DNA from: an uncultured Gammaproteobacteria bacterium
Lineage (GTDB): Bacteria > Patescibacteriota > Microgenomatia > Levybacterales > JACOYD01
Length of the DNA stretch: 64,000 nt
NCBI GenBank assembly: GCA_964445095.1
Contig: CAYUJR010000002.1
Coordinates: 5,176 to 69,175 of the forward strand
Direction: 5' to 3'
The stretch's first letter is position 1. Each line of letters begins with the position of its first letter. A program made the translations under genes and the position numbers. The notes beneath the pieces are model-generated. The model was not told the DNA's origin. It worked only from the letters and a program-made list of their open reading frames with translations, and made no database searches. This document shows, in pieces, positions 1-31,941 of the stretch.

Positions 1-681
1 GTGCGGGGGAATTTTAAGGATTTAGGGGAAATTGCACGTTCAAATGGTTTTGATAAGGTGAGCGGCATAATTTTTGATTTGGGAGTTTCCAGTCATCAAT
101 TAGAGACTGAAGAGAGAGGTTTTAGTTTTCAGAAGGATGCGCCGCTTGATATGAGAATGAATTCGTCAGCTGACGAACAAGCGGTTACAGCGGCAGACTT
201 AATTAATGGCTTAACTAGAAAGGAGTTATATGAGCTTTTTACTAAATTGGGTGAGGAGCAGTTTGCTGGGCCCATTTCTGACTCTATTATTAGGGCCCGT
301 CAAGTAAAACCCATTGCGACAACCGGTCAATTAGCAAAAGCGGTAGTAGATGTTTATAAAAAATATCATATGAAAAGAGGAAAAATTAATCCGGCAACAA
401 AAGTTTTTCAAGCTTTACGAATGGCTGTTAACGACGAGCTTAACAATTTAAGACAAGCCTTGCCGCAAGCCTTAGACCTGTTATTGCCCGGCGGCCGCTT
501 GGTGGTAATTAGCTTTCATTCCTTGGAGGATAGAATTGTTAAAAATTTTGCCAAAGAACAGCAGGCATTGGTCTTAGCGCGTATTTTAACAGAGAAACCA
601 GTTACGCCCGATTTTACGGAAATAGAAAGTAACCCCAGAGCTAGAAGTGCCAAGATGAGAGTGCTGGAAAAATTAGCATGA
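1..681 (+). CDS. rsmH: 16S rRNA (cytosine1402-N4)-methyltransferase RsmH/MraW, C-terminal part (5' end lies outside the window)
   Basis: Translation contains GIIFDLGVSSHQLE...ERGFSF...DAPLDMRM, the RsmH signature. First gene of the dcw cluster. Overlaps the next ORF by 4 nt (ATGA). Confidence 0.85.
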   Translation: MRGNFKDLGEIARSNGFDKVSGIIFDLGVSSHQLETEERGFSFQKDAPLDMRMNSSADEQAVTAADLINGLTRKELYELFTKLGEEQFAGPISDSIIRARQVKPIATTGQLAKAVVDVYKKYHMKRGKINPATKVFQALRMAVNDELNNLRQALPQALDLLLPGGRLVVISFHSLEDRIVKNFAKEQQALVLARILTEKPVTPDFTEIESNPRARSAKMRVLEKLA

Positions 682-962
682 ATAATCGTCATATTTTATT
701 ATTAAGCCTGGTTGTAATTTTAGTAATAGCTCTAACTGTGATGCAGGTAATTCTTTCCAATAAGCTGTCAACGGCAGGAAAAGAATTAGCCAAAATTCAA
801 AACGTGATTAATGAGCAGGAGTTAATTGGCGAGGAGTTGAGGATTAAAATAGCCAGCGCCAGCTCACTTACCGCCATTGCCCAAAATGCGGGAAAACTGG
901 GATTTGTCAAAGATAGCTCGCCGCTGGTGGTGGGCGGCAGCGAATTTGTGGCTCAACGATGA
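678..962 (+). CDS. ftsL: FtsL/DivIC-like small bitopic division protein
   Basis: 94 aa with an N-terminal TM helix then a coiled-coil. Sits between rsmH and ftsI as in canonical dcw clusters. 4-nt overlaps on both sides. Confidence 0.55.
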   Translation: MNNRHILLLSLVVILVIALTVMQVILSNKLSTAGKELAKIQNVINEQELIGEELRIKIASASSLTAIAQNAGKLGFVKDSSPLVVGGSEFVAQR

Positions 963-2647
963 TATGGCGAACACAAACCCTGTTTTTCTTTTTCTTATTT
1001 TTATTTTTTCTCGTAATTGCCAGACTCTTTTACTGGCAAATTATCCGAGGGAGTGAGCTTTTCCTGCAGGGTCTTTCCCAATACACCCAAACCACTGTTC
1101 ATTTACCCGAGCGGGGGAAGATCTATACTTCCGACAACTTTCCCTTGGTAGCTAATTCTCCCGGATATCTAGTTTTTGTTCAGGCAAGTCTGGTAAAAGA
1201 CCAGGACAGCAAAAAACAGCTCATCAATAAACTTTCTTATCAGCTTAGCCTAGAGGTGGCTTCTGTAGCTGCTACTTTAAATCAAGATTTGCCCTGGATT
1301 CCTATTAAGCAGCGAGTTGATAGATCAATAAAAGAGCAGATAGAAAGTTTAAAACTAACCGGAGTCGGATTTAACAGGCAGGATTTCCGCTTTTATCCGG
1401 AGGCTTCTCTGGCGGCTCATCTGACAGGGTTTACCGGTAAAGACGAGAGCGGGGCAGATAAGGGCTATTTTGGCCTGGAGGGATATTATGACAGAGAACT
1501 GCGCGGTAGAGTTGGCCGAGTCAAAGAGACCAAAGATGCTCAAGGAAAGCCGATTTTAATTGCCGAGCGGCTGGGAGAGAATAAAATTGACGGGCAAGAA
1601 CTAGTTTTACACCTTGATAGGAGAATTCAATTTATAGCAGAAAATGCCTTAAGAGAAGGCGTAGAGCGCTACGGGGCCAAGGGAGGAACAGTGGCGGTGA
1701 TGGATCCTCAAAGCGGAGGAATTATGGCCTCTGCCTCCTATCCCAATTATGAGCAGGAGAAATACTTTAATTATGGCGAGGAGCAGTTTCGCGATTCTCT
1801 AATTTCGGATACTTATGAGCCGGGTTCAACCTTTAAGGTTTTGACTATGGCGGCGGCGTTTAATGAGAATGCGGTGACGGTGGACACTAAATGCGACTCT
1901 TGTGGCGGTCCGGTGACTATTTTTGATTACACTATTAGAAATTGGAATGATAAGTATTTTCCAGATACTAATATGAGAGATGTGATTATTCATTCCGATA
2001 ATACCGGCATGGTCTTTGTCTCCAAAAAATTGGGACTGGATAAAATGTTTACTTATCTCGAGAAATTTGGTATTGGCAGTTCAACCGGCATTGATTTACA
2101 GGGTGAAGCAAGTAGTAAGCTGCGGCCAAAAGACCAGTGGTATCCGATTGATCTGGCGACAGCCGCTTTTGGTCAGGGAGTGGCGGTTACTCCGATTCAA
2201 ATGCTGACGGCGGTTTCGGCTCTGGCTAACGGCGGTCGCCTGATGGAGCCCCACGTGGTCGCCAAAATTAAAGATAGCGGCGGTAAGGAATTTAATATCA
2301 AGCCAAAAGTGGTGCGAGAAGTAATTTCTCCAAATACCGCTCAACTCATCACGGAGATGATGGTAAACGCGGTAGATAATGGTGAAGCTAAATTTGCCAA
2401 GCCTCGCGGTTATCGCATTGCCGGAAAAACCGGTACCGCCCAGATCCCGATAGCCGGACATTATGATCCCAACCGGACCGTGGCTTCTTTTGTCGGTTTT
2501 GCGCCGGCGGATGATCCTAAATTTGTGATGATTGTGATAATTCGTGAACCAACCGCTTCAGTTTTTGGTTCGGAAACCGCCGCCCCCATTTTCTTCAAAA
2601 TCACCCGAGAATTATTAAGTTACTACAACATCCCCCCGAAGGAGTAG
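959..2647 (+). CDS. ftsI: Peptidoglycan D,D-transpeptidase FtsI (class B PBP)
   Basis: N-terminal poly-Phe TM segment. SxxK (GSTFK), SDN (HSDNTG) and KTG(T) motifs are all present. Position follows ftsL. Confidence 0.9.
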   Translation: MIWRTQTLFFFFLFLFFLVIARLFYWQIIRGSELFLQGLSQYTQTTVHLPERGKIYTSDNFPLVANSPGYLVFVQASLVKDQDSKKQLINKLSYQLSLEVASVAATLNQDLPWIPIKQRVDRSIKEQIESLKLTGVGFNRQDFRFYPEASLAAHLTGFTGKDESGADKGYFGLEGYYDRELRGRVGRVKETKDAQGKPILIAERLGENKIDGQELVLHLDRRIQFIAENALREGVERYGAKGGTVAVMDPQSGGIMASASYPNYEQEKYFNYGEEQFRDSLISDTYEPGSTFKVLTMAAAFNENAVTVDTKCDSCGGPVTIFDYTIRNWNDKYFPDTNMRDVIIHSDNTGMVFVSKKLGLDKMFTYLEKFGIGSSTGIDLQGEASSKLRPKDQWYPIDLATAAFGQGVAVTPIQMLTAVSALANGGRLMEPHVVAKIKDSGGKEFNIKPKVVREVISPNTAQLITEMMVNAVDNGEAKFAKPRGYRIAGKTGTAQIPIAGHYDPNRTVASFVGFAPADDPKFVMIVIIREPTASVFGSETAAPIFFKITRELLSYYNIPPKE

Positions 2648-2649
2648 TT

Positions 2650-3240
2650 TTAGGGTGAGTAAAATAAAGACAATGCTCAATCCTACAGATTATTTAATCT
2701 ATTGAAGATGGATCAAATTTGGGAAAGTCTTCATTTAAATATGCAGAACGAGGATCCCTTTTGGAGAAACCAAAAGTCCTCCCTCTCTCTGGTTGTCGCC
2801 TGACCACAATCTCAACCTCTTCTCCTGCTCTTCTTGCTGCTTCTTCCAATTCTGCCACACCTGCTCTTAATGTTCTTTCTCCTGCTCCAGGGGTACGCTC
2901 ATAGAGAGTAGTAGGTTCTCCTATAAATTTAATTGAGCCATCTTCTCCCCTTTTTGTTCCTATGGGTCTTAATCCCACGACTGCGTTTAAGGCAATATTA
3001 TCGCCTGTGTGTCGCCGCCTGGTTTAGCTTCTTTTCTCATGTAGAAGAATTTAGCAAATAGTAATTCAAAAGTCAAGTGTATGTCTTGTGGCGTTGAGCT
3101 TCAAATGGCCTGTGATGAGTTCTATCGAACCATGCCATGGCTCTGAGTTTATCGAAGGGTTATAGCATTGAGCCTGCCGAAATGCTTGCCCTGAGTCCAT
3201 CGAATGGGGTAAAATATGGGAAGAAAATATGAGTTTATTT
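2650..3240. other. Anomalous GC-/CT-rich non-genic-looking segment between ftsI and lexA (degraded gene or structured RNA; not identifiable)
   Basis: Composition differs sharply from the flanking AT-rich DNA. Overlapping ORFs on both strands (2694-2978 minus; 2719-2904 plus). No SD or promoter context. The minus-strand ORF starts at GTG and is rich in AGA/GGA/GAA codons. Confidence 0.3.
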
Positions 3241-3246
3241 TTCCTC

Positions 3247-3276
3247 TTGACAGACTGACTATTTAGTCAGTATACT
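3247..3276 (+). promoter_or_regulatory. lexA promoter with embedded perfect palindromic operator (putative SOS box)
   Basis: TTGACA at 3247-3252, then 18 bp, then TATACT at 3271-3276. The ATG follows 9 nt later, so the mRNA is near-leaderless. The perfect inverted repeat ACTGACTA-TT-TAGTCAGT (3254-3271) fills the spacer. Confidence 0.6.
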
Positions 3277-3285
3277 GGATGGGTT

Positions 3286-3900
3286 ATGGATAAAATAACT
3301 GCCCGTCAGGCAGAAGTTTTGAAACTGATTTATAAATCGATTTCCGATTCCGGTTACCCCCCGACTTTGGCCGAACTGCGTGAGTCTTTGGATGTTTCTT
3401 CCAATCAGGCAGTTTTGGATATTCTAAAAATTTTAGAAGATAAAGGTTATATACAGAAAGAGGAAGGAACAGCAAGAACCATTAGAATTTTAGATAAAGG
3501 CATTAAAGAATTGGGTTTAAAGCAAGTTGCTCCTGTTGCAGGTATCAGCGCAGCCGGCCCATATATGCAAGCCTATGAAATTAATGAATGGAAAGTTATA
3601 GACGATGTACAAGTAACCCCAAAAGACCGTCTGGTAAGAATTTCCGGGGATTCCATGATTGAGGCAGGCATTAATGATGGAGACATTGTCATAGTTCGTG
3701 AATCTAAAGAATTTAAAAACAGGGATATAGTTTTAGCCAGAAATAATGATGAAACAACAGTTAAAAGGTTTGTGCATGATGACGGTAAGGTTTACTTAAA
3801 ACCGGAAAACCCAAAATATAGAAATATTCCCATATATCCGGAGACTAGATTATTGGGTAAAGTTGTAGGTATACTTGGGAAAAGTAAAATTAATGACTAA
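3286..3900 (+). CDS. lexA: LexA-type transcriptional repressor (S24 peptidase)
   Basis: Canonical LexA winged-HTH N-domain (TARQAEVLKLI...YPPTLAEL...GYI). Ala-Gly cleavage site (AAGP), GDSM serine and VKRF lysine are present. The palindromic operator lies in its own promoter. Confidence 0.9.
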   Translation: MDKITARQAEVLKLIYKSISDSGYPPTLAELRESLDVSSNQAVLDILKILEDKGYIQKEEGTARTIRILDKGIKELGLKQVAPVAGISAAGPYMQAYEINEWKVIDDVQVTPKDRLVRISGDSMIEAGINDGDIVIVRESKEFKNRDIVLARNNDETTVKRFVHDDGKVYLKPENPKYRNIPIYPETRLLGKVVGILGKSKIND

Positions 3901-4717
3901 TGTTATGATACCGCAAATTATAAACAGAACAGGATTAGACCATCAGCCTAACAGAAATAATGCTAAAAAGCTTTTATATCCGGAAGATTTTATAAATAAA
4001 ATTATGTGTGGGGATGCTATCGAAATAATGAAACAAATCCCTAATCAAAAAGTAGACCTAGTTGTTACTTCGCCTCCTTATAATCTCAAAAATTCTACCG
4101 GTAACGGAATGAAAGACGGACGAGGTGGTAAATGGGCAAATGCTGCACTACAAAATGGATACACACATCACGACGATTGTATGCCCCATGATAAATATGT
4201 TAAATGGCAAAAAGAATGTTTGAATGAAATGATGAGAATAATTCCAGAAGATGGCGCAATTTTTTATAATCATAAATGGCGTGTTCAGGATGGCTTATTA
4301 CAAGATCGCCAAGATATCGTGGCTGGATTTCCTGTCAGGCAAATTATTATTTGGAAGAGAAAAGGAGGTCTTAATTTCAATTCCGGTTACTTCTTGCCTA
4401 CTTATGAAGTTATTTACCTTATAGCTAAACCGAAGTTTAAATTAGCGCCAAAAGCAAATGCTTATGGTGATGTTTGGGAATTTACCCAAGAAATGAAAAA
4501 TGAGCATCCCGCTGCTTTCCCTGTCAAATTAATTGATCGTATCATTTCTTCAACCAATGCAAAAATAATTCTTGATCCTTTTATGGGTTCAGGTACAACA
4601 GCTATTTCTGCGATTAATTTTAATAGAAAATATATAGGTATTGATATTTCACCGGAGTATTGTAAGATGGCACAGGAGCGAATTGAGCGCCACAATGCGC
4701 AAATAAAACTCCTGTAA
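3893..4717 (+). CDS. Beta-class N4-cytosine/N6-adenine DNA methyltransferase of a type II R-M system
   Basis: Motif IV TSPPY (VVTSPPYNL) precedes motif I DPFMGSGTT, which is beta-group order. SPPY is typical of N4C MTases. The ORF is open from TTG 3875; the start is placed at ATG 3893 and overlaps the lexA stop. Confidence 0.8.
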   Translation: MTNVMIPQIINRTGLDHQPNRNNAKKLLYPEDFINKIMCGDAIEIMKQIPNQKVDLVVTSPPYNLKNSTGNGMKDGRGGKWANAALQNGYTHHDDCMPHDKYVKWQKECLNEMMRIIPEDGAIFYNHKWRVQDGLLQDRQDIVAGFPVRQIIIWKRKGGLNFNSGYFLPTYEVIYLIAKPKFKLAPKANAYGDVWEFTQEMKNEHPAAFPVKLIDRIISSTNAKIILDPFMGSGTTAISAINFNRKYIGIDISPEYCKMAQERIERHNAQIKLL

Positions 4718-4721
4718 AACT

Positions 4722-5519
4722 ATGGCAAGTAAACCGATTATTTATACAAAACAAACGCTAATTGATAAACTTAAAGAAATTGTGGTTATGGGTTGGATTC
4801 CAAACGCCCGGCGAGGTAATTCTGGGGGTATAGGAAATACATTAGAAGATTTACTTGGTATTAAAGAAAATAATTTACCAATTCCAAACGCCGCTGAATG
4901 GGAGTTAAAAACTCAACGTATTAATTCTTCTTCATTAACGACCCTTTTTCATTCAGAGCCCTCACCTCGAGCTATTCGTTTTGTTCCACAAGTTTTGTTG
5001 CCAAAATATGGATGGGCTCATCAGGAAGATGGCAAGAAATATGCCAAAGGTGAGATGAGTTTTCGGCAAACAATTCATGGTCAATCAAGAAGTGATCGTG
5101 GTTTTATGGTTATTATTGATCGTTCAGAGAAAAAGATTTTAATTTCCTTTGATTCAAAAAGTGTGGCCATAAAGCATAAAGACTGGCTCGAATCAGTGAA
5201 AAAACGTGTTGGATTAAAAGAACTTGACCCCCAACCATATTGGGGGTTTGATGATTTAGAACATAAAGCCGGAACAAAATTACTTAATACCTTCTATGTT
5301 CAAGCTGAAGTGAAAGTTGAACGTAAAAAAGAATATTATAAATATACAAAAATTATGATGCTCCAAAAATTCAGTTTTGAAGGATTTTTGAAAGCATTGG
5401 AAGAAGGAAAAATTCTTGTAGATTTTGATGCTCGTACAGGACATAATCATGGAACAAAGTTTAGGATGAGACAGGATTGTTTACCAATACTTTATGAAAA
5501 AGTAACGGTGATTATTTAA
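4722..5519 (+). CDS. Type II restriction endonuclease partner of the MTase (size and context fit MvaI/BcnI-like enzymes)
   Basis: Starts 5 nt after the MTase stop. At 265 aa it matches the size of monomeric MvaI/BcnI-family REases that pair with N4C MTases. No motif strictly recognised; the call rests on context. Confidence 0.5.
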   Translation: MASKPIIYTKQTLIDKLKEIVVMGWIPNARRGNSGGIGNTLEDLLGIKENNLPIPNAAEWELKTQRINSSSLTTLFHSEPSPRAIRFVPQVLLPKYGWAHQEDGKKYAKGEMSFRQTIHGQSRSDRGFMVIIDRSEKKILISFDSKSVAIKHKDWLESVKKRVGLKELDPQPYWGFDDLEHKAGTKLLNTFYVQAEVKVERKKEYYKYTKIMMLQKFSFEGFLKALEEGKILVDFDARTGHNHGTKFRMRQDCLPILYEKVTVII

Positions 5520-5567
5520 ACATTAATCAGAAAAAGAAATTTTGGAGAATTTAAGAAAGGTAAAGAT

Positions 5568-6230
5568 ATGAATTCAACAACAGAAAAACTCATAGAACGA
5601 GTTAGCCAACTTTTGTCTAAGGGGCAATCTGTCGCTGGGACACGATACAATGATAGTTCTGAACATGTTTTCGCTCCAGACGAAGTAAATAGTACCCCAT
5701 TTCATGCATGGAAGAATAACTCACAAAACTGCGTTTTAATGGTTTGTGGAGAAAACAGTCCTTATTATAAAAACTTTATTGAAGGAGTGAAAATAGCTCG
5801 CCCTAGCGATGTAGATCGTGGTATTGGCATACTCACAGCACTGAAAGAAGATTTGGAGTTAGGTTATTTAACCAAAGTTAGAGATTTGGTAAGCGCTGAA
5901 ATCTTTACAGATTTTATCGAAATGGCTCAGCACCTCTTGGATAATAACTATAAAGACCCTTCCGCTTCCCTGATAGGTGCTGTATTGGAAAATGGCTTGA
6001 GACAAATCGCACAGAAAAATACAGTTGAAGTCAAATCGGGCGATGACATAGGATCACTTAATACAAAGCTCGCAGACAAAGAAGTTTATAGTCGCTTGTT
6101 ACAGAAACAAATTCAGGCCTGGAAGGCAATAAGAGATAGTGCTGATCATGGTAAGTTTGAGGATTACAAAACAGAGGATGTTAAGGCTATGTTAGAAGGT
6201 GTGAAAAGATTTTTAACGGAGAATTTGTAG
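5568..6230 (+). CDS. HEPN-domain protein, Abi-like (DUF4145-like), RNase-type Rx4HG motif
   Basis: The C-terminal helical domain carries ...AWKAIRDSADHGKF..., i.e. R-x4-H-G. It sits immediately downstream of the R-M genes, as stand-alone HEPN/Abi genes often do. Confidence 0.55.
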   Translation: MNSTTEKLIERVSQLLSKGQSVAGTRYNDSSEHVFAPDEVNSTPFHAWKNNSQNCVLMVCGENSPYYKNFIEGVKIARPSDVDRGIGILTALKEDLELGYLTKVRDLVSAEIFTDFIEMAQHLLDNNYKDPSASLIGAVLENGLRQIAQKNTVEVKSGDDIGSLNTKLADKEVYSRLLQKQIQAWKAIRDSADHGKFEDYKTEDVKAMLEGVKRFLTENL

Positions 6231-6232
6231 AT

Positions 6233-6589
6233 ATGCAAAATCAGATACCAATAACAAATAAAATAAAAACCATCAAACTTGAGAAGATGCCAACTCTTAT
6301 TAAAGAGTTTATGGTTGATAGAACTCCTCGCAATAAAAACTTCGGCCAACTCTTAAAAATTTTCAATTCTTGCTACAAATCTTTTTCTCCTGATCCATCT
6401 AACGATTTGCGAATACTGAAGTACGTCGAGGATATGAAGAGTGGGGAATGGAATGATTTGATAATTATAACTTTTCAAAATGGACAGGCTATAGACGGTG
6501 TGCATAGAGGTATTGCATATCTAAAATGCGTAAAAGAAGGAAGTAAGGAGGATACTCTTCCGCAGATTTATTTAAGTAGAGTAAAATAA
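6233..6589 (+). CDS. Hypothetical 118-aa protein whose first 8 codons are duplicated at 6591
   Basis: The ORF starts 3 nt after the HEPN stop. The 24-nt segment holding its start (6231-6254) is repeated exactly at 6589-6612. Confidence 0.5.
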   Translation: MQNQIPITNKIKTIKLEKMPTLIKEFMVDRTPRNKNFGQLLKIFNSCYKSFSPDPSNDLRILKYVEDMKSGEWNDLIIITFQNGQAIDGVHRGIAYLKCVKEGSKEDTLPQIYLSRVK

Positions 6590-6590
6590 T

Positions 6591-6737
6591 ATGCAAAATC
6601 AGATACCAATAAATTGGCAGTTGAAAGCTGTAGAATTAGTAAGTAAATCGCACGAGGCAAGAAAGAAATCAAAAGAGCTTTTGGAAGAAGCGAAAAGAAA
6701 AGTTGAGGAAATGGTTGAAAAAGGAGGTGAGAATTAG
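6591..6737 (+). CDS. 48-aa coiled-coil small ORF (MQNQIPINWQ...EKGGEN) sharing its start with the preceding gene
   Basis: Not in the ORF track because it is under 60 aa. It has the same ribosome context and first 7 residues as 6233-6589. Its 3' end encodes the AAAGGAGGTGA SD of the next gene, and its stop overlaps that gene's GTG start. Confidence 0.4.
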   Translation: MQNQIPINWQLKAVELVSKSHEARKKSKELLEEAKRKVEEMVEKGGEN

Positions 6738-7108
6738 TGAAACTTGATGAATTTATAACGAATGTTTTAATGGATATTGACAATGGATTAGCAGTCGCAA
6801 AAGAAAAAGCTAATAGAAATTATTATGTGTCATCTACAGATAAAGGGGGAGTTAGTTTCGATATTGCCGTAACCACAACTTCTTCAAGTGGTTCAAAAGC
6901 CGAAGGAACAGCAAAAGTAGGCATAATCCAAGTTTTGGGTGCTGGTGTTAATGCCGGGTTAGAAAGTAAGGAAGAAAATAGTCATGTAAGCAGAATACGG
7001 TTTTTTGTTCATGTACCAAGTAGGACAAAAACTGAAATTGAAGAGGATTCTAGAGAAATAGCAGAGTTAAATAGAAGACAAAGAGAAGAATCTAGTTTTG
7101 GAACTTAG
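6737..7108 (+). CDS. Small cytoplasmic protein, trypco2-like (trypsin-co-occurring domain 2-like) pattern
   Basis: GTG start 7 nt after a strong SD. Pattern: an amphipathic helix, then VSFDIAVTTT...KAEGTAKVGIIQVLGAGVNAG...H.SRIRFFVHV, resembling trypco2 conflict-system domains. This is recalled from memory, not aligned. Confidence 0.35.
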   Translation: MKLDEFITNVLMDIDNGLAVAKEKANRNYYVSSTDKGGVSFDIAVTTTSSSGSKAEGTAKVGIIQVLGAGVNAGLESKEENSHVSRIRFFVHVPSRTKTEIEEDSREIAELNRRQREESSFGT

Positions 7109-7306
7109 CTGGATGACCTCCCTCTTTCATTTCTCCTTCGTCCTTTGGGACTATGGAAGGACACAGTAAAATTACGGAAGGGCAGGCACGCCGGTTTGCC
7201 CTGAGCGAGGCCAAAGGAAAGAAATTGCAATTGTGGAGGATAGTGTAGCACAGTAATTTTATGAAACAGATGAAAATTAAATTAGCAATTTTTGAAGGAA
7301 GTGAGT

Positions 7307-7325
7307 CGGTGACAAATTGTCACCG
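7307..7325. repeat. Perfect 19-nt palindrome CGGTGACAA-A-TTGTCACCG in the spacer after the defence-like operon
   Basis: Exact inverted repeat. No U-tract follows it, so it is more likely a protein-binding site than an intrinsic terminator. Confidence 0.6.
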
Positions 7326-7465
7326 TTTGAAAATGTTGGCTGTTTACGAGATAATTATTTACCAAGTAATATAATTAAAAAACTAAAATGAGCAATTATT
7401 ACAACATTTAAATTCCCGAGGTGTTTTTGGTTGCATTGCGGATATATTTCCATAAATAATACTAA

Positions 7466-7891
7466 ATGAATAAAGACAAAAGTTATACATGGAATGCCCC
7501 AGACAAAGAAGTTAGCCAGTTAAGCAGTAAAGAGATTGTAATAATATATATTCTTAAAAAGATTAGTCCCTATCTAACAACTCTAACAAGATTTTTCCCA
7601 TTCTCATTACTCTGGCAGGATCGAAGATTTCATTACAAACACAAAAAGATTGCTGACGCCGATGATCTTATTATTAAAATTGCCGGAGAAAAAGACTTTT
7701 GGTTTAAATTATTTTCTTACGATGAAGATGATCGTTTTTTAAACATTATCGGTAAATTTATACCTTTAAAAAAAGACTCTAGCAAAGATAAATTGTTCCA
7801 GTATTTTAGAAAGAAAATGGAGAATGAAGACTTTTATATAAATGACTTGGAGGATGGGAGAGTTAAAATTTCCTTAATGCAAAAGAAATAG
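7466..7891 (+). CDS. Hypothetical protein (AT-rich orphan)
   Basis: 141-aa ORF with no recognisable motif. Very AT-rich and isolated by a 357-bp spacer. Confidence 0.4.
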   Translation: MNKDKSYTWNAPDKEVSQLSSKEIVIIYILKKISPYLTTLTRFFPFSLLWQDRRFHYKHKKIADADDLIIKIAGEKDFWFKLFSYDEDDRFLNIIGKFIPLKKDSSKDKLFQYFRKKMENEDFYINDLEDGRVKISLMQKK

Positions 7892-8001
7892 ATATGAGAT
7901 TATAATCAAAACAAGCTGGTCCTTCGGTAGACTCAGGATAAAGGGATTTTGGAAATGTTTTAATTTTCGTTATACTTAAATAGTAGAGAGGAGGTGAGGA
8001 A

Positions 8002-8523
8002 ATGAATATTAAGAAATTGTTAATAGGTGGTGCGGCCGGGGCGATCATGTTTGCTGCGGTAGTCGCACCGGCTTTGGCAGCGGGTGGATTTGACCAGTTT
8101 GGCTATAACAGAACTGCCAGAAACTTTGTGGGTACCTGTTTAAGCTGGGGCATGGGTAAATATGGATGGACCCAGGCTCAAGCTCAAGCTTACTGCGGAG
8201 TTTACTCCAATGATAAACTGGTGATGAAATGGAATGCCGAGTGGGACCGGGGTAATGCCGAGGGTTGGGCAAACGGCCCGTATGATGCCTGGATTGATAA
8301 TGAGTGGAATGGCAGAAACAATGGGTCAGGGGAAATCTGGCATTATAAAATAGCCTGGGACAGGGGTTGCGCAGACTCCGGTACTCCTTCGGGAGCGGCT
8401 GTCAAAGGAGGGGCCTATTGTATTTGGGGGCCTTTTGCCATGCTGCAAAGCCAGGGGTCTGGTGCGGATAAAGTGCATTATTGGGATGTGCTGCTGGCGC
8501 CTGCCGGTTACGGAGCATATTAA
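8002..8523 (+). CDS. Secreted Trp/Gly-rich hypothetical protein (Sec signal peptide)
   Basis: Strong SD (GAGAGGAGGTGAGGAA) 6 nt before the ATG. Signal peptide with AxA site (APALAAGG). Higher GC than its neighbours. Three Cys. Confidence 0.6.
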   Translation: MNIKKLLIGGAAGAIMFAAVVAPALAAGGFDQFGYNRTARNFVGTCLSWGMGKYGWTQAQAQAYCGVYSNDKLVMKWNAEWDRGNAEGWANGPYDAWIDNEWNGRNNGSGEIWHYKIAWDRGCADSGTPSGAAVKGGAYCIWGPFAMLQSQGSGADKVHYWDVLLAPAGYGAY

Positions 8524-8572
8524 TATAAGGAGAAATGGAGTTTTGGGGCTTTCTGAGGTATAATAGAGCCTG

Positions 8573-9709
8573 ATGTGGCAGAGCCTCAAAAACATCTATC
8601 ACTTGGCCATGGCGGTGGTGGCTAATTTGTGGTTTGGTTTTCCCTCAAAAAAGCTGACGGTCATTGGCGTGACCGGCACTGACGGTAAGACGACTACTGT
8701 TAACCTCATTTACCATATCTTAAAAACCGCCGGAAAACAGGTTTCGATGATTTCTTCGGTGGGGGCGGTTATTAATAGCAAAAATTATGAGACAGGTTTT
8801 CATGTGACCACTCCCTCTTCCTGGAAACTGCAAAAGTTTATCAAGAAAGCAGAAGGTTATTTAGTTCTCGAAGTTACTTCGCACGCTCTTGACCAGTACC
8901 GTGTTTGGGGCATAGATTTTGCAATTGGGGTACTGACTAATGTTACCAATGAACATCTTGATTACCACAAAACCTGGGAACAATATGTGAAAGTCAAATC
9001 AAAGTTGTTAAAAAACGCCAAGATAGCAATTGTTAATAAAGATGACAACTCCTACGGAGTAATTTCCAATTTCCAATTTCCAATTTCCAATAAATTAATT
9101 ACTTATGGATTAAAAAACTTTTCTTTTAAGACAAAATTGATGGGGGAGTTTAATAAATATAATATTTTGGCGGCGGCGGCGGCGGCAAAGACTTTAGGAA
9201 TAAAAGATCAAGTGATAAAAAAAGCAATAGCCAGTTTCCAATTACCGATTGGCAGGATGGAAGTTGTTTATAACGGCGCGTTTATGGTTATTATTGACTT
9301 TGCTCATACTCCAAACGCCCTAGAGCAAGCTTTATCGACAGTGAAAAAAAATGTTAGTGGTCGGTTAATTCATATTTTTGGTAGTGCTGGAGAAAGAGAT
9401 TTTCAGAAACGGCCGGAAATGGGAAGAGTTTCTAGCAAATACGCAGACATTATTATTTTGACTGCGGAGGATCCACGTTCGGAATCGGTTGATAAGATTA
9501 TCGAAGAGATTGAATCAGGAATTAAAAAGTCAGGAGTTTTGAGGGTTCAAAACAGGCAGGAGGCGATTAATACTGCTATTAAAATGGCCAAAAAAGGAGA
9601 TGTGGTGTTACTTACCGGTAAAGGGCACGAACAGTCGATGAATTATGGTCGGGGGGAGGAGCCGTGGAGTGAACATGAAGCAGTTAAACAAGCACTTAAA
9701 AAAAGTTAA
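8573..9709 (+). CDS. murE: UDP-MurNAc-L-Ala-D-Glu:meso-DAP/L-Lys ligase MurE (short form)
   Basis: GVTGTDGKTTT P-loop and DFAHTPNALEQAL (MurE DNAAHTPDAL-like) motifs. TATAAT at 8559-8564 sits only 8 nt before ATG 8573; the true start could instead be M at 8609. Confidence 0.85.
   Translation: MWQSLKNIYHLAMAVVANLWFGFPSKKLTVIGVTGTDGKTTTVNLIYHILKTAGKQVSMISSVGAVINSKNYETGFHVTTPSSWKLQKFIKKAEGYLVLEVTSHALDQYRVWGIDFAIGVLTNVTNEHLDYHKTWEQYVKVKSKLLKNAKIAIVNKDDNSYGVISNFQFPISNKLITYGLKNFSFKTKLMGEFNKYNILAAAAAAKTLGIKDQVIKKAIASFQLPIGRMEVVYNGAFMVIIDFAHTPNALEQALSTVKKNVSGRLIHIFGSAGERDFQKRPEMGRVSSKYADIIILTAEDPRSESVDKIIEEIESGIKKSGVLRVQNRQEAINTAIKMAKKGDVVLLTGKGHEQSMNYGRGEEPWSEHEAVKQALKKS
9062..9089 (+). repeat. (ATTTCCA)x4 heptanucleotide array, in-frame in murE
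   Basis: Four perfect units. With flanking bases it forms a 30-nt insert encoding ISNFQFPISN. Confidence 0.9.
9169..9186 (+). repeat. (GGC)6 trinucleotide repeat in murE (poly-Ala)
   Basis: GGCGGCGGCGGCGGCGGC encoding AAAAAA. Confidence 0.9.
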
Positions 9710-11099
9710 ACGCATCCATTTTGTCGGGATTAAAGGCGTAGGGGTGGCGCCGTTGGCAATTTACGCCAAACAGGCCGGCGTTATTGTTAGTGGAAGTGAC
9801 ATTGAAGATGAGTTTATTACAGACTTGCCTTTGAAAGAAGCGGGCATATCCTGGACTGTGGGATTTGACTCCAAAGATTTACCTGACAAGTTGGACTTGG
9901 TAATTGCTACCGGTGCTCATGGTGGGATGACTAATTCGCAAGTGGCGGAAGCCAAAAAGCGGGGGATTGCCGTTTGGATGCAGGGCGAGGCAGTGGGTAA
10001 ATTTATGGAGGATTTTTTTGGTATTTCGGTCACCGGTTGCCATGGTAAAACTACCACCGCGGGCATGTTAGCCACGTTACTGGTTAAATCTGGTCTTGAT
10101 CCCTCATATATTGTCGGTTCGGGAACAATCCGGCCCCTCGGAGCGGCCGGACACAAAGGTAGGGGTAGATATTTTATTGCCGAAGCGGACGAGTACGCCA
10201 ATGAACCGACATTTGATAAAACTCCCAAATTTTTATATCAAGACCCCAAAATGATAATTCTCACCAACATTGATTTTGACCATCCGGATTTGTTTAACAG
10301 CATTGATCAAATTAGAGAAAGCATATTAAAATTCTTACAAAAACTGGGTAAAGACGGCGTGGCTATAGTTAATGGCGATGACAGTCAAATTCAAAAAATC
10401 CTTCCCCAGATTGGAGCTAAAGTAATTACTTTTGGCACTACGCCCAAAAATGATTTTTATCTAGCCCGCGTAGGTACCATTCCCGGTAAAACTACCCTTA
10501 ATATTATCAATAAAAATGTCAGTCTGGGTGAGTTCTTGCTTAGTCTGCCGGGAGTTCATAATGCCAAAAATGCCTTGGCGGTGGTGGTGGCGGCTTTGGA
10601 GCTGGGTATTTCTGTAGATAAAATAAAACAATATCTGCCGGTCTTTGCGGGAGCCAAAAGACGGTTTGAGTTAGTCGGTAAGTTAAAAAGCGGCGCCCAA
10701 GTTTACGATGATTACGCTCATCATCCCAAAGAAATTACCGAAACGCTTTTATCTGTCAAGCAATGGTTTCCCAAATCAAGAATAACTGTTATTTTTCAGC
10801 CTCACACTTATTCCAGAACCAAAGCCTTATTTATTGATTTTATCCACGCTTTTTCCCAAGCCGACCAGGTTATTTTTACCAATATTTATCCATCTTTGCG
10901 GGAAGAGCCGGATTTAACAGTTTCCTCTCAAAAACTGGCTGCCTCGACCGGTAAATTTCATCCCAGCGTTAAGTTTTTAGCCCAGCCTCGGGATGTGATA
11001 GAATATATAAACAATCAAGAATGGACGGAGAAAGATTTAATAATGACCATGGGAGCGGGAGACGTGTATAAGATTGCAGAAGCAATCTTGCGCGCATAG
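9675..11099 (+). CDS. murC: UDP-N-acetylmuramate--L-alanine ligase MurC
   Basis: IHFVGIKGVGVAPLA...SGSD N-terminus, GCHGKTTT and DDYAHHP motifs. The ORF is open from 9645; ATG 9675 is chosen and overlaps the murE 3' end. Confidence 0.9.
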   Translation: MKQLNKHLKKVKRIHFVGIKGVGVAPLAIYAKQAGVIVSGSDIEDEFITDLPLKEAGISWTVGFDSKDLPDKLDLVIATGAHGGMTNSQVAEAKKRGIAVWMQGEAVGKFMEDFFGISVTGCHGKTTTAGMLATLLVKSGLDPSYIVGSGTIRPLGAAGHKGRGRYFIAEADEYANEPTFDKTPKFLYQDPKMIILTNIDFDHPDLFNSIDQIRESILKFLQKLGKDGVAIVNGDDSQIQKILPQIGAKVITFGTTPKNDFYLARVGTIPGKTTLNIINKNVSLGEFLLSLPGVHNAKNALAVVVAALELGISVDKIKQYLPVFAGAKRRFELVGKLKSGAQVYDDYAHHPKEITETLLSVKQWFPKSRITVIFQPHTYSRTKALFIDFIHAFSQADQVIFTNIYPSLREEPDLTVSSQKLAASTGKFHPSVKFLAQPRDVIEYINNQEWTEKDLIMTMGAGDVYKIAEAILRA

Positions 11100-11132
11100 C
11101 GCTAAAAATTGCCGATGCAATTTTGTCAAATC

Positions 11133-11153
11133 CTAAATTCTAATTTCTAAATC
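11133..11153 (+). repeat. Three heptamer units CTAAATT-CTAATTT-CTAAATC abutting the murB ATG
   Basis: Occupies the expected SD position. Same ATTTCYA family as the murE array. Confidence 0.8.
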
Positions 11154-12146
11154 ATGAACATTATGGATAAAAAACTACAAGAATTGGAGAAAAATTTAGG
11201 GGCGGGTAGAGTTCGTGTCGGTGAGGTGATGAGCGCACATACTACCTTTAAAATTGGCGGGCCGGCCCAATTTTATTTTGAAGCAAATACCATTGACGAT
11301 TTGGTAAATGCAGTCAAAACAGCCAATAAATTAGATCTACCTTTTTTTGTTTTTGGCGGAGGTTCAAACATTATAGTTTCCGACAATGGCATTAAAGGTC
11401 TGGTGATTAAAAATAACTGCCGAAAATTCACCGTCTCTAAAATGAGCGGAAGCGTAAGGGGTAAAAAAGTGGGAGTTGATAAGGCATTGGTAGCGGCAGA
11501 AAGCGGAGCGCTAATGAATCAATTGGTGCGTTTTACCATCGACCAGGGTTTACAGGGTTTGGAATATCAATTGGGATTGCCGGGAACAGTAGGTGGGGCA
11601 ATATATATGAATTCCAATTTCCCCAAAAAGGGAGCCTACGCGGGAGACTCCCTATATCAGGCTAAGCTCATAACTCGAGAGGGAGAAATAAAAGAAGTTA
11701 GTAATTCTTATTTCCAGTTTGGTTACGATAAGAGCATCTTGCAAGAAACAGGGGAGATAGTTTTATCAGTAGTTTTTCGTTTTAAACCGGCCGATAAAAA
11801 AATATTGTGGGAAAAGGGAATGGAGGCCTTAAATTATCGCAGCCTAACTCAACCTAAGGGAGCATCAGCCGGTTGCACCTTCAGAAATATTTCCGTAGTT
11901 GATGCGGTTAGAATTCCCACCCCGCAGCAAATTACTTCCGCCGGATACTTAGTTGATAAGGCTGGGTTAAAAGGAAAACGAATAGGTGACGCCATGATTT
12001 CTCCGCTTCATGCCAACTTTATTCTGAATTTTGGTCGAGCTCATGCTCAAGATGTGACGTCGCTAGTTAAGCTCGCCAAAGACGAGGTTTATAAAAAATT
12101 CGGCGTAAATTTACAATTGGAGGTTAAAACCGTCGGTTTTAGTTAG
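11154..12146 (+). CDS. murB: UDP-N-acetylenolpyruvoylglucosamine reductase MurB
   Basis: HTTFKIGGPAQFYFEANTIDDL and GGGSNII FAD-binding motifs. Three heptamer units (CTAAATT CTAATTT CTAAATC) abut the ATG. Confidence 0.9.
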   Translation: MNIMDKKLQELEKNLGAGRVRVGEVMSAHTTFKIGGPAQFYFEANTIDDLVNAVKTANKLDLPFFVFGGGSNIIVSDNGIKGLVIKNNCRKFTVSKMSGSVRGKKVGVDKALVAAESGALMNQLVRFTIDQGLQGLEYQLGLPGTVGGAIYMNSNFPKKGAYAGDSLYQAKLITREGEIKEVSNSYFQFGYDKSILQETGEIVLSVVFRFKPADKKILWEKGMEALNYRSLTQPKGASAGCTFRNISVVDAVRIPTPQQITSAGYLVDKAGLKGKRIGDAMISPLHANFILNFGRAHAQDVTSLVKLAKDEVYKKFGVNLQLEVKTVGFS

Positions 12147-12157
12147 ATAAGCTCACT

Positions 12158-13480
12158 ATGAAAAAATACATTGTTAAGGGCGGAGTCCCATTAAGAGGTG
12201 AGGTGAGCGTTTCCGGAGCAAAAAACGTGGCGCTTAAGGCACTGGTGGCGGCCGCTCTAACCAGGGAGGAAGTAGAGATTGATAACGTTCCGCTGATTTC
12301 CGACTTGTTTATTATGATAGACATTATTCGTGAATTGGGAGGCGAGGTCAAGATTTTAGATCATCAGTTAAAAATTAGAGTAGGAGATATTAAAAAGCAT
12401 AAAATCTCGCTTGACAAAGCCAGCGAAATCAGAACTTCTTCAATGTTTCTCGCGCCACTACTGGCCAGAACCGGTCAGGCGATTATTCCCAATCCCGGCG
12501 GTTGCAGAATCGGCGCCCGGCCAATAGACAGGATAGTAGAAGGTTTGAAAAAACTGGGATGCGATATTATCTATGACAGTAATGATGGATACTTTCATGC
12601 CAAAACCAAAGGTTTGGTAGGCGCTCATCATAAATTTGATAAAAATACCCATACCGGAACGGAAACGATGATTTTGGCCGCAGTGCTGGCTCGTGGCCGG
12701 ACGGTGCTGGAGAATGCCGCTCAAGAGCCGGAAATAGATGAGCTGATAATTCTGCTTAACAACATGGGGGGAAAGGTTATTCGAAGCCGCTCTCGCACTA
12801 TTGTAATTGAAGGAGTAGAAAAACTTCATGGAACGAAATTTTCGATCGGCCCGGATAGAAACGAAGTAGTCACCTTTGCCCTGGCTGGATTGGCGACGGG
12901 TGGAGAGGCGACAGTAGTAGGTGCCGAAAAAAAATCAATCAAGGCTTTTTTAGATAAACTTTCCCAAGCTGGAGCAAATTGGCAGGAAGTTGAGAGAGGA
13001 ATACATTTCTCGGGTAAGAATCTGCGGTCTACAGAGGTGACGACTTCTTTTTTTCCGGGTTTTATGACTGATTGGCAGGGACCCTGGGCGGTGTTAATGA
13101 CCAAGGCTCAAGGCATATCAATAATTCACGAAACAGTCTACGAAAATAGATTCTCATATATTGGCGAGTTGTTAAGAATGGGGGCCAAAATTGAATTGTT
13201 TAACCCCAAAGTTAAAAACCCGCAAGAGCTCTATAATTTTAATTGGGCAGATGACAAAGATGAATACTTTCATGCTGCCAAAATTTACGGTCCCACCCCG
13301 CTGCATAATGCCGCTCTGTCAATCTCTGACTTACGGGCCGGAGCGACGTTGGTTTTAGCCGCTTTGGCGGCCTCGGGCGAAAGCGTTATTCATGGCATAG
13401 AGCATATTGACCGCGGATATGAAGATTTTGCGGGAAGATTAAAAAAACTTGGCGCCAATATCAAGAGGTTAGAGGATTAA
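12158..13480 (+). CDS. murA: UDP-N-acetylglucosamine 1-carboxyvinyltransferase MurA
   Basis: KGGVPLRGEVSVSGAKNVALKALVAAAL N-terminus typical of MurA/EPSP-fold enzymes. Length 440 aa. Confidence 0.9.
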   Translation: MKKYIVKGGVPLRGEVSVSGAKNVALKALVAAALTREEVEIDNVPLISDLFIMIDIIRELGGEVKILDHQLKIRVGDIKKHKISLDKASEIRTSSMFLAPLLARTGQAIIPNPGGCRIGARPIDRIVEGLKKLGCDIIYDSNDGYFHAKTKGLVGAHHKFDKNTHTGTETMILAAVLARGRTVLENAAQEPEIDELIILLNNMGGKVIRSRSRTIVIEGVEKLHGTKFSIGPDRNEVVTFALAGLATGGEATVVGAEKKSIKAFLDKLSQAGANWQEVERGIHFSGKNLRSTEVTTSFFPGFMTDWQGPWAVLMTKAQGISIIHETVYENRFSYIGELLRMGAKIELFNPKVKNPQELYNFNWADDKDEYFHAAKIYGPTPLHNAALSISDLRAGATLVLAALAASGESVIHGIEHIDRGYEDFAGRLKKLGANIKRLED

Positions 13481-13481
13481 T

Positions 13482-14708
13482 ATGCAGGCAATTTTACTAG
13501 CAGCTGGCAGTTCCAGTCGTTTTTATCCTTTTAACGGGACGCATAAATCAATGGTTTATCTTTTGGGCAAGCCGATACTAGCTCACGCAATTGATGGACT
13601 AAGAAGTATTGGCATAAAAGAGCTTATTATTGTAGTAAGAGATGATGGAATAGTTAAAGATTATTTTGGCGATGGTAAAAAATTTGGAGTAGAAATTAAT
13701 TATGTTGTCATAAATCAACCCTTGGGAATGGGTGATGCCCTACTTCAAGCTAAAAAACACCTTAAGGGTGATTTTATTTTTTTAGGGGGAAACCATGTTA
13801 ATAGTAACATTTTAGTTAGTAAATTATTGACTAACAGAAAAAATACTGATGCGGTAGTATTAATTAACCAAAGATTAAATACTTGGGAATATGGAGTTGT
13901 TAAGCTGGTAGGGCAGCAGGTTAAGGGAGTGGTGGAGAAGCCCAAGAAAGGTCAAGAACCGTCAAAATTTTGTTTAGTCAGTATCTATTTATTACCTATT
14001 AATTTTTTGGCGGTTTTAGAAAAAACTAAAGTGCATCAGTATAATTTTGAAGAGGCTTTGGATGAGTTTACCAAGATAGCAAAAGTCGCGGCAGTGGAGA
14101 TTAAAGAGGAGATAGCCACCTTAAAATACCCTTGGGATTTATTAAACGTTAAGAACATGCTGCTAAAAAAGATGAAAGACTATCGGGGAAAAAATGTCAA
14201 AATTGCCAAAAGCGCGGAAATTATTGGCGAAGTTTCTATTAGTGATGGTGTAGTAATTATGGAAGGAGTGCGTATTAAAGGTCCTGCTTATTTGGGAAAA
14301 AATGTGACAGTTGGTAATAATGCCTTGTTGCGTGGTGGAGTTGACGTGGAAGAGGGGTCGGTAGTTGGTTCTTATATGGAAGTTAAAAATAGTCTGGTAA
14401 TGAAAAATAGTACTACCCACTCCGGTTTTATTGGAGATTCAGTAGTTGGAGAAGCTTGCAAAATTGGCGCCCAATTTTGCACCGCTAATGTCAGAATTGA
14501 CAGAAAAACTATTCATGATAGTGGTCGTAAATTCTTAGGCGTAATTATGGGAAATAATGTTCATATCGGTATTAAATCATCCACCATGCCGGGAGTTATT
14601 ATTGGTAATAATGCTACCATTGGCCCCTCTACCACAGTTTTGCAAAACGTGTCTGATGATTCCCGTTACTACACCAAATTTGAAAAAATAGTGGAGGAGA
14701 AAAATTGA
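13482..14708 (+). CDS. GlmU-like bifunctional sugar-1-phosphate nucleotidyltransferase / left-handed beta-helix acyltransferase (archaeal-type)
   Basis: N-terminus LLAAGSSSRFYPF...K (NTP-transferase G-loop). C-terminal hexapeptide repeats. Lies between murA and glmS. Confidence 0.7.
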   Translation: MQAILLAAGSSSRFYPFNGTHKSMVYLLGKPILAHAIDGLRSIGIKELIIVVRDDGIVKDYFGDGKKFGVEINYVVINQPLGMGDALLQAKKHLKGDFIFLGGNHVNSNILVSKLLTNRKNTDAVVLINQRLNTWEYGVVKLVGQQVKGVVEKPKKGQEPSKFCLVSIYLLPINFLAVLEKTKVHQYNFEEALDEFTKIAKVAAVEIKEEIATLKYPWDLLNVKNMLLKKMKDYRGKNVKIAKSAEIIGEVSISDGVVIMEGVRIKGPAYLGKNVTVGNNALLRGGVDVEEGSVVGSYMEVKNSLVMKNSTTHSGFIGDSVVGEACKIGAQFCTANVRIDRKTIHDSGRKFLGVIMGNNVHIGIKSSTMPGVIIGNNATIGPSTTVLQNVSDDSRYYTKFEKIVEEKN

Positions 14709-15376: not shown

Positions 15377-15386
15377 TTTCTAATTT
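15366..15386 (+). repeat. Three heptamer units CTAATTA-TTAATTT-CTAATTT abutting the glmS ATG
   Basis: Occupies the expected SD position. Confidence 0.8.
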
Positions 15387-31856: not shown

Positions 31857-31880
31857 ATTTTTTTCTTAGCAATGAATAAC

Positions 31881-31912
31881 AAGGTCGGACCTTATGTCAA
31901 GGTCCGACCTTA
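31881..31912. repeat. REP-like hairpin repeat, copy 1 (13-bp stem, 5-nt loop)
   Basis: AAGGTCGGACCTT-ATGTC-AAGGTCCGACCTT followed by A. Identical to the copy at 32635-32666. Confidence 0.8.
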
Positions 31913-31941
31913 ATAATCTAAACTTTAATAACATAACGTAC

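Follow-up and report, generated by a model that had tools for sequence, protein, structure and literature searches.

A LexA–promoter head joined to interchangeable restriction–modification and defence cargo in Microgenomates bacteria

LexA repressors in general act by promoter occlusion and are removed by self-cleavage, which is triggered by RecA on single-stranded DNA. Damage-responsive control of defence genes is also exercised in CBASS by CapH/CapP, a repressor with a separate metallopeptidase, and bacteria of the candidate phyla radiation (CPR), which are mostly without CRISPR, are thought to rely on restriction–modification (R-M). BrxR and CapW, WYL-domain repressors encoded beside defence genes, are relieved by a signal of the DNA-damage or single-stranded-DNA type (PMC9122601, PMC9122589); the C proteins of PvuII, Esp1396I and Csp231I are small, autoregulated DNA-binding proteins at the head of R-M operons that set the timing and level of expression (PMC2175313, PMC2377437, PMC8053105); and the lexA2-imuA-imuB-dnaE2 (imuC) cassette of Pseudomonas putida and other Proteobacteria is a widely dispersed, lexA-first cassette with one transcript, repressed by its LexA at its own operator, and P. 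putida has a second LexA with a different regulon (PMC3901139). Here we describe a stretch of 64,000 nucleotides (nt) from contig CAYUJR010000002.1 of a CPR Microgenomates bacterium (the window, numbered from its first letter), in which lexA, an R-M gene pair and candidate effector genes lie between the division and cell wall (dcw) genes ftsI and murE. On balance, positions 3245–7108 are probably a defence operon, headed and repressed by its own LexA, that has inserted at the ftsI–murE junction. What deserves attention is smaller than the whole insert yet more general: a mobile LexA–promoter head that is found across Microgenomates with interchangeable cargo of R-M and defence genes, one copy of it being in the window.

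The unit resembles the lexA2 cassette in having lexA first, behind its own operator, and in being dispersed among genomes. It differs in that the cargo consists of R-M and anti-phage effector genes, not translesion polymerases, in that the host belongs to the CPR Microgenomates, and in that the cargo appears to be swapped between the lexA and hsdS ends. As in C-protein systems, a mobile R-M unit begins with the gene for what looks like an autoregulated DNA-binding protein; C proteins, however, are helix-turn-helix (HTH) activator/repressors of ~80 amino acids (aa) that act on C-boxes and are usually co-transcribed with the endonuclease, whereas here a 204-aa LexA with an S24 domain precedes the methylase. 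LexA would add a DNA-damage input that is absent from C proteins. No other HTH open reading frame (ORF), and no gene of the C-protein type, was found in the LexA unit. With BrxR/CapW and CapH/CapP it shares a repressor encoded next to defence genes, but here the repressor is a canonical LexA, presumably RecA-reliant, and it accompanies classical R-M and not CBASS or BREX. The features that define the C-protein, BrxR/CapW and CapH/CapP families are absent from the unit. In the literature searched, we found no paper linking lexA to an R-M operon, and LexA goes unmentioned in a 2025 review of R-M biology; the motif or the linkage may have been reported in the study of the Patescibacteria SOS network by Sanchez-Osuna et al. 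2017 (Environ Microbiol 19:3465).

Judged by its sequence, the first gene of the unit encodes a true LexA equivalog, predicted to be catalytically intact. An earlier note on this DNA had named it lexA, and the match to TIGR00498 (160.2 bits against a cutoff of 110.95) bears this out, together with matches to PF01726 (1e-17) and PF00717 (1.2e-25). The protein is 40% identical to E. coli LexA, with A90–G91, S123 and K160 aligned to A84–G85, S119 and K156 of that protein, and these residues are invariant in 39 LexA homologues. A perfect 18-base-pair (bp) palindrome, ACTGACTATTTAGTCAGT (ACTGACTA-TT-TAGTCAGT), fills the spacer between the −35 and −10 boxes of the lexA promoter at 3254–3271, where the same note had placed it; it is kept upstream of all LexA homologues fetched and occurs once in the 64 kb when up to three mismatches are allowed. 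We infer that it is a LexA-type operator through which lexA would regulate itself. Because both the operator and the recognition-helix residues S39, N40 and Q41 are conserved across LexA proteins as low as 54% in identity, this LexA is probably also the general SOS repressor of the lineage and not private to the module, a reading that the earlier note had not considered. Neither a second lexA nor recA, nor any other SOS gene, was found in the 64-kb window.

LexA homologues number more than 5,000, dozens of them at 80–91% identity. The contexts of seven homologues (54–91% identity) were looked up, which with the window gives eight contexts, and lexA was directly followed by R-M genes in 8/8, each time behind the same promoter–operator–lexA head. 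The proposal of the earlier note, that a LexA-type repressor forms one unit with the R-M and defence genes behind it, gains strength from these contexts outside the window. The chromosomal site of the unit differs in each genome. Upstream of every lexA are TTGAC(A/T), then ACTGACTA-NN-TAGTCAGT (CTGACTA-NN-TAGTCAG), then a −10 box, with one mismatch in L133; the operator core GACTANNTAGTC was not found elsewhere in ~780 kb of Microgenomates sequence.

Four of the eight loci carry a methyltransferase (MTase) gene followed by an MvaI_BcnI-type restriction endonuclease (REase) gene. In the window, with ftsI to the left, these are followed by a HEPN gene, p118, an hsdS relic and a Trypco2-like gene; in L036-38 (LexA 90% identical, RlaP to the left) by a gene for a 367-aa protein; in L041-43 (LexA 65%, a second LexA to the left) by PDC-M50A and ThsB-like TIR genes; and L132 (LexA 86%, ruvCAB-DUF2130 to the left) holds the pair. 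The remaining loci carry fusion-type cargo. An HSDR_N_2/N6_Mtase/Eco57I fusion follows lexA in L039 (LexA 86%, left neighbour trehalose-P synthase), with genes for an MBL-fold (PDC-M48B-like) protein, proteins of 205 and 237 aa and HsdS behind it, and in L133 (LexA 82%, left neighbour 4HBT), with Bro-N and two small ORFs. A nuclease–methylase fusion follows it in L134/135 (LexA 57%, left neighbour ftsZ), with 236-aa, HsdS and 152-aa proteins before ileS, and in L144-147 (LexA 62%, left neighbour secDF), with 105-aa and HsdS proteins before msrB. HsdS accompanies the fusion-type cargo in all but L133, whose contig ends soon after. The gene order of the window was also found in an independent read-level assembly (L143), and a metagenome scan for LexA relatives returned one short close match (L044) and 79 distant gut-type LexA loci.

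One of these loci (L041-L043, 9187–10618; Daviesbacteria GW2011_GWA1_41_61-type) has two tandem lexA genes, 48% identical to each other, each with a palindrome in its own promoter: CCGACTA-AA-TAGTCGG for the first and CTGACTA-TA-TAGTCAG for the second. The second lexA alone heads the R-M/TIR operon. These tandem paralogues with different palindromes echo the two LexA proteins of P. putida.

Nucleotide comparisons delimit the parts of the window that are shared with other loci. The stretch homologous to L036 and L132 (~82.6%) begins exactly at the −35 box (3245) and ends exactly at the stop of the REase gene (5518). With L039 and L133 it covers the promoter and lexA (3245–3900) and, in L039, returns at the hsdS relic (6633–6739), and with L041 it begins in mid-lexA (3537; 80.7%), the 5′ part being at only 65%. 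Across the four MvaI-type loci, the MTases and REases share 79–89% identity, and this includes L041, whose LexA is at only 65%. The conserved unit is 3245–5519, and the rest of what had been taken for one cassette of 5.9 kb is mosaic cargo followed by the unrelated ORFs p141 and p173. Against L039, LexA is 86% identical, in comparison with 52% for ParB, 42% for L21 and 39% for RodA; against L134, LexA (57%) shows about the same similarity as FtsZ (63%) and ParB (56%). The nearest FtsI relatives carry Levybacteria/Microgenomates labels, and the nearest LexA relatives are Daviesbacteria. That LexA and cargo stand at 80–90% where housekeeping proteins stand at 39–52% shows that the unit moves horizontally, and the LexA head and its cargo have moved recently between distantly related Microgenomates. 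Recombination appears to have swapped the cargo between two conserved borders, the lexA and hsdS 3′ ends.

Carriage by phage was considered and rejected: a LexA search of IMG/VR gave nothing above 47% partial identity, and the operator pattern was present in four viral contigs, without promoter context or LexA, so that we take these four palindromes as chance matches. Elsewhere in the window (31257–32619), between ftsZ and ileS, are a 199-aa ORF without family match and, on the minus strand, a 225-aa IS200-like Y1 transposase homologue; L134 has a Y1 homologue, 47% identical, within its dcw cluster. As L134 has its lexA operon at ftsZ–ileS, where the window has this ORF and Y1 gene, the lexA unit of the window is not at that site.

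The two genes behind lexA in the window encode a type II R-M pair, as the earlier note had recognized (family matches in Table 1), and one PADLOC model, PDLC03305, covers MTase and REase together as a fused M-R protein. The nearest solved relatives of the MTase are the N4-cytosine MTases 8s9n/8s9m, and its specificity class is probably N4-cytosine. The REase matches R.MvaI (PDB 2oa9) at 9e-22 and is 84–88% identical to the REases of L036, L132 and L041. The pair is like MvaI/BcnI type IIP systems in joining an endonuclease of this family, with R.MvaI as the nearest solved relative, to an adjoining N4-cytosine-type beta-class methylase; it is unlike MvaI in that the REase identity is ~30% or less. 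We know of no LexA beside characterised MvaI/BcnI systems. The ATG of the MTase gene (3893) lies over the lexA stop, again as noted earlier, with an overlap of 8 nt (ATGACTAA), and this overlap (ATGRCTAA) is kept in L132, L041 and L039, with either cargo type. Since the methylase gene starts inside the end of lexA, there is no place for a promoter of its own, and translational coupling of the two genes is suggested.

Site avoidance was tried, and rejected, as a sign of enzyme activity. Observed/expected ratios in the window were 0.84 for CCWGG and 0.68 for CCSGG, without clear avoidance and similar to those in genomes without the system. The pseudo-palindrome CTSAG (CTCAG/CTGAG) was strongly under-represented, with 17 sites observed and 61 expected under a third-order Markov model (0 against 17.5 expected in L021; the window was compared with L021, L025, L018, L022, L012, L027 and L002). 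This avoidance does not follow the presence of the MvaI-type pair, so these lineages probably have another restriction system at work, with this specificity or one close to it.

We mapped the window proteins onto 35 loci encoding FtsI relatives (43–57% identity, except one outlier at 31%). The dcw order of the window is rsmH, ftsL, ftsI, murE, murC and murB, with ftsA/ftsZ at 28.7–31.2 kb. Between the end of ftsI (2647) and the start of murE (8573) are nine plus-strand ORFs and one minus-strand ORF of 94 aa, which is called as a gene in the source record; the earlier note had counted 12 intervening features, all on the plus strand. None of the intervening genes was found at the ftsI–murE site in any of the 35 related loci (0/35 by tblastn, tblastx and blastn). 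The ftsI–murE distance across these loci ranges from ~20 nt to 6 kb. The two genes are adjacent in ~10 loci (19–150 nt), 0.7–1.5 kb apart in many other relatives, 3 kb apart in L010 and 6 kb apart in L011; the expectation that murE directly follows ftsI is thus borne out in those ~10 loci but not in the clade generally, in which the gap is often filled by other, host-type genes, such as those for a CsaA-like tRNA-binding protein, a YdjM-like membrane protein or an extra Mur ligase. The ftsI–murE junction is a recurrent variable site in this clade. The site is empty in L002, the closest relative on the murE side (MurC 70%, MurB 73%), which has 103 nt between ftsI and murE and whose homology to the window resumes just before murE (right boundary in Table 1). 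Given the lack of such genes in the 35 loci and the L002 homology from 8556, positions 2648–8555 (~5.9 kb) are accessory DNA at this clade-variable site, as the earlier note had held, and none of the 35 loci supports the alternative of an ancestral core.

Frequent occupants of the gap in the Levybacteria-type relatives (L001-L034) are a CsaA-like tRNA-binding gene on the minus strand and a gene for a YdjM-like membrane protein of 192 aa. An additional Mur-ligase paralogue (445 aa) stands in the gap of L007 and L017, and the gap of ~6 kb in L011 contains large ORFs, among them one for a GHKL-ATPase-like protein. No remnants of the CsaA-like or YdjM-like gap genes were found in the window. No recombinase adjoins the insert, and a search for flanking repeats or target-site duplications gave short chance repeats only, plus the 24-nt repeat around p118 described below. 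The start of murE is close to that of L002 (window 8556–8805, L002 5194–5442: 88% nt identity; 94% aa identity over residues 1–78), the remainder of MurE is 69% identical and FtsI just 57%, and L002 is without MurE residues 79–122. This closeness of the 5′ part of murE, set against the divergence of FtsI and the rest of MurE, indicates that the two sides of the junction have different histories. MurE (378 aa) matches TIGR01085 with 382 bits, and relatives in other loci match it over nearly the whole of their own length; it aligns to murE profiles from about position 95, so the usual N-terminal domain is lacking.

Table 1. Features in and around the ftsI–murE interval of the window
Feature	Position	Strand	Description
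rsmH	1–681		dcw gene
ftsL	678–962		dcw gene
ftsI	959–2647		dcw gene
94-aa ORF	2694–2978	−	No homologues; singleton cluster, gene call in source record; in left flank 2648–3244, outside the conserved unit
Promoter	3247–3276	+	−35 TTGACA 3247–3252, −10 TATACT 3271–3276, 18-bp spacer; score 11/12, best in region
lexA	3286–3900	+	204 aa; winged-helix DNA-binding domain and S24 autopeptidase; cleavage site Ala90-Gly91, Ser123, Lys160
MTase	3893–4717	+	Beta-class DNA methyltransferase, PF01555 (N6_N4_Mtase) 2.8e-41, SPPY motif; PADLOC MTase_II PDLC03305 1e-123
REase	4722–5519	+	MvaI/BcnI-family type II endonuclease, PF15515 (MvaI_BcnI) 5.3e-67 over full profile; PADLOC REase_II 1e-83
HEPN	5568–6230	+	220 aa, C-terminal HEPN domain, RDSADH (Rx4H) motif
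p118	6233–6589	+	Conserved small protein, DLR...DGIHRGIAY motifs; 34 representative homologues, mostly ~110–120 aa
p48	6591–6737	+	48-aa relic of 3′ end of hsdS-like specificity gene; conserved tail of the cassette
p123	6737–7108	+	Trypco2-like; GTG start overlaps p48 stop by 1 nt
Hairpin	7307–7325	+	CGGTGACA-AAT-TGTCACCG then TTTGAAAATGTT; stem in minimum-free-energy and centroid structures
p141	7466–7891	+	AT-rich ORF, 30% GC, no homologues, singleton cluster; inserted DNA, outside the LexA unit
p173	8002–8523	+	Predicted secreted, N-terminal signal-like segment, 51% GC, own Shine-Dalgarno; outside the LexA unit
Right boundary	8556–8572	+	L002 homology resumes, 88% over 250 nt from 8556 (blastn); murE −10 box TATAAT 8559–8564
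murE	8573–9709		dcw gene

Downstream of the REase gene, the next product is a predicted HEPN RNase effector. R189 of its motif is invariant, and H194 is present in at least 90% of 37 aligned sequences. The Pfam HEPN profile (PF05168) gave 19.8 bits with the window protein, below the gathering threshold of 22 (E = 9e-4), and a few homologues in this family of ~190 proteins have a precomputed PF05168 match. The AlphaFold 2 model, with a predicted local distance difference test score (pLDDT) of 91, has an extra ~100-aa N-terminal helical domain, and its top Foldseek matches in the PDB were HEPN proteins (2hsb, template-modelling score 0.76, root-mean-square deviation 2.1 over 115 residues; 2q00; 1o3u; HepT toxins), with probabilities of 0.9–1.0 and E-values of just 0.04–0.8. 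Motif, model and structural matches agree with the HEPN label given earlier. The protein is like the HEPN proteins of R-M and abortive infection and like HepT/MntA in its four-helix HEPN fold, its Rx4H motif and the presence of homologues within R-M operons, and unlike HepT/MntA in having no MNT antitoxin partner, in its extra N-terminal domain and in its score below the Pfam threshold. Homologues lie within a type III R-M operon (L136-138, Woesebacteria) and in a defence-island-like region (L139). The former (L136-L138, 6813–14518) encodes HTH_17 (63 aa), HEPN, an N6_N4 methylase (555 aa), ResIII/RE_endonuc (773 aa) and a 954-aa protein; it is a type III-like R-M operon with a different small regulator at its head and the HEPN homologue as second gene.

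For p118 there was neither a Pfam nor a PDB match, and an assignment to a ParB/Srx-like domain, on the strength of its DGIHRG motif, was dropped because profile searches with Pfam and PDB lent it no support. The p118 gene lies between the two copies of an exact 24-nt direct repeat, ATATGCAAAATCAGATACCAATAA (6231–6254 and 6589–6612), through which p118 and p48 begin with the same seven codons (MQNQIPI); the repeat has the look of a scar left when p118 was inserted. The relic p48, which is not a gene in itself, has 80% and 73% aa identity to the HsdS C-termini of L039 and L134, window positions 6633–6739 are 86% identical in nucleotides to the end of the L039 hsdS, and p48 weakly matches the PADLOC Specificity_I profile at positions 427–461 of 473. 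The same relic also lies downstream of the TIR gene in L041-43.

The p123 family has 43 members, all beginning MKLDEFI. PF19631 (Trypco2) matches were weak and found in 12/37 family members (best E 3.1e-3), and a 63%-identical homologue in L140 is directly upstream of a 435-aa trypsin-domain gene. For the window protein itself, no Pfam match, PF19631 included, was obtained even at E <= 10, and its AlphaFold 2 pLDDT is only 68. The earlier Trypco2-like label is thus sub-threshold, backed by these weak family matches and the trypsin neighbour in L140. The window protein has no trypsin partner; a trypsin pseudogene in the 7109–7465 spacer was looked for, and no trypsin gene or remnant was found in the window. 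The L140 region (1–16366) is a mobile defence-type island with serine recombinase, PIF1-like helicase, NmeDI_C, HATPase_c_3, PD-(D/E)XK, trypsin, AAA_15 and TrwB/DUF87-like ATPase genes.

The flanks had been described as compositionally odd, with a GC/CT-rich segment on the left and a structured, GC-rich spacer on the right, but they are not special in this way. The C/T richness of the left flank is due to the minus-strand 94-aa ORF, and GC and AT skew are negative over 2600–3200, fitting minus-strand coding; this ORF has no family match, no Rfam match and no homology to any related locus. The right spacer (7109–7465) has 36–40% GC, and the folding of 7105–7345 was not clearly better than that of shuffled sequences (z = −1.6 on the plus strand and −2.9 on the minus strand). 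An RNA element in the flanks was likewise rejected, since this folding is not clearly better than that of shuffles and Rfam, searched with the entire window, gave no match at gathering thresholds; at E <= 1, the stretches 2600–3300 and 7050–8050 yielded nothing beyond noise. A hairpin within the right spacer is a possible, weak operon terminator, which a consensus terminator scan did not call. Beyond it, p173 has four relatives at >=90% identity, all on short contigs, and no family matches.

If the operon acts as its layout suggests, LexA would bind the palindrome, occlude the promoter and hold expression of the entire polycistronic unit low, in homeostasis. Self-cleavage of LexA at Ala90–Gly91 would be triggered by RecA on single-stranded DNA, for which general damage, replicating phage or breaks made by restriction in incoming or under-methylated DNA could be the source; more methylase and endonuclease would then be made, and the second-line effectors (the HEPN RNase and the Trypco2-like protein) would be switched on. 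On entry into a cell without the repressor, the promoter would at first be active and unrepressed, the methylase gene being read before that of the endonuclease, and the unit would then shut itself off, in a C-protein-like role. It is from spacing only that we infer an operon continuous over 3286–7108, where no plus-strand terminator-like sites were found and promoter-like sites (26 against 18.9 ± 4.2 expected) were not above chance. The earlier note had given all gaps in this interval as overlaps or at most 5 nt, which holds except at the REase–HEPN junction, where the gap is 48 nt (5520–5567).

Several observations weigh against this operon-wide control by LexA. As the 48-nt gap falls exactly where homology to the other cassettes ends, HEPN and the later genes could have their own promoter. 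CCWGG and CCSGG, not being avoided in the window, leave no footprint of long-term restriction pressure, and the eight contexts are not fully independent, the LexA head being of common ancestry. Raising an endonuclease during DNA damage also looks risky for the cell, and in a survey of E. coli strains, defence-system expression was negatively correlated with recA (bioRxiv 10.64898/2025.12.14.694197). An ordinary host SOS lexA, with the DNA downstream of it serving as a defence landing site and the R-M and HEPN genes on their own signals without LexA control, is a rival reading with support of its own: the protein is a full LexA equivalog, the recognition-helix residues are kept, and the operator is kept across 54–91% identity, as expected of a lineage-wide SOS box; the cargo varies widely, as in known defence hot spots; and there is the gap before HEPN, as well as gaps of 82–150 nt in some other LexA-headed loci. 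Yet in the window, L132, L041 and L039 the 8-nt overlap with the end of lexA, shared by either methylase kind, leaves an independent promoter no space, and the LexA head travels with its cargo (86% against 39–52% for housekeeping proteins) to a different site per genome, unlike a fixed host locus, so we consider such a landing site unlikely.

A role for LexA mainly as a timing and dosage controller of a selfish, mobile R-M unit, analogous to a C protein, with a methylase burst upon entry into a new cell before tight repression and with damage sensing secondary or irrelevant, agrees with the mobility of the unit, with the regulator standing first and methylase before endonuclease in all MvaI-type loci, and with a strong promoter fully occluded by the operator where no separate C protein or C-box is present. 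We hold it to be improbable, as the Ala-Gly site and Ser/Lys dyad are invariant in the 39 homologues, which argues for selection on RecA-stimulated self-cleavage, whereas a simple HTH repressor would be enough for timing; known C proteins, moreover, activate the endonuclease gene (PMC2175313, PMC2377437). Finally, the insert could be read as a patchwork of dead or dying fragments from past recombination, with no coordinated function today, since it contains p48 as a relic of hsdS, p118 with its 24-nt duplication, a Trypco2-like gene lacking a trypsin partner and unrelated orphan ORFs at the flanks. This is very improbable: the main ORFs are intact and, compared with their families, full length, LexA, MTase, REase, HEPN and p123 keep their catalytic or motif residues, the gene order is repeated in L143, and close relatives are 84–91% identical with intact frames. 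A LexA-headed, self-repressed operon is accordingly the reading that we favour for the window.

Were this reading true, restriction and second-line effectors would be wired directly to the RecA/LexA alarm, and mobile R-M units would have a third control mode, beside C proteins and methylase autoregulation. The locus would illustrate a defence in layers: restriction, as the first line, could pass a signal on to abortive-infection effectors. The conserved pattern ACTGACTA-NN-TAGTCAGT is a candidate Microgenomates LexA box, and promoter–lexA–M–R would make a simple synthetic construct. As a more tentative proposal, possible at best, a mobile, modular defence cassette of Microgenomates may have taken on LexA as its standard sensor of infection and damage; the head and the hsdS tail would serve as fixed recombination arms, between which whole R-M systems and effectors (HEPN, TIR/PDC-M50, MBL, Trypco2) pass from one distantly related genome to another. 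If so, this would be a LexA-anchored cassette-exchange system, in which restriction would be SOS-inducible and restriction breaks could trigger abortive-infection effectors. The LexA-first layout in all sampled contexts suggests that, in these bacteria, phage defence is tied to the DNA-damage alarm.

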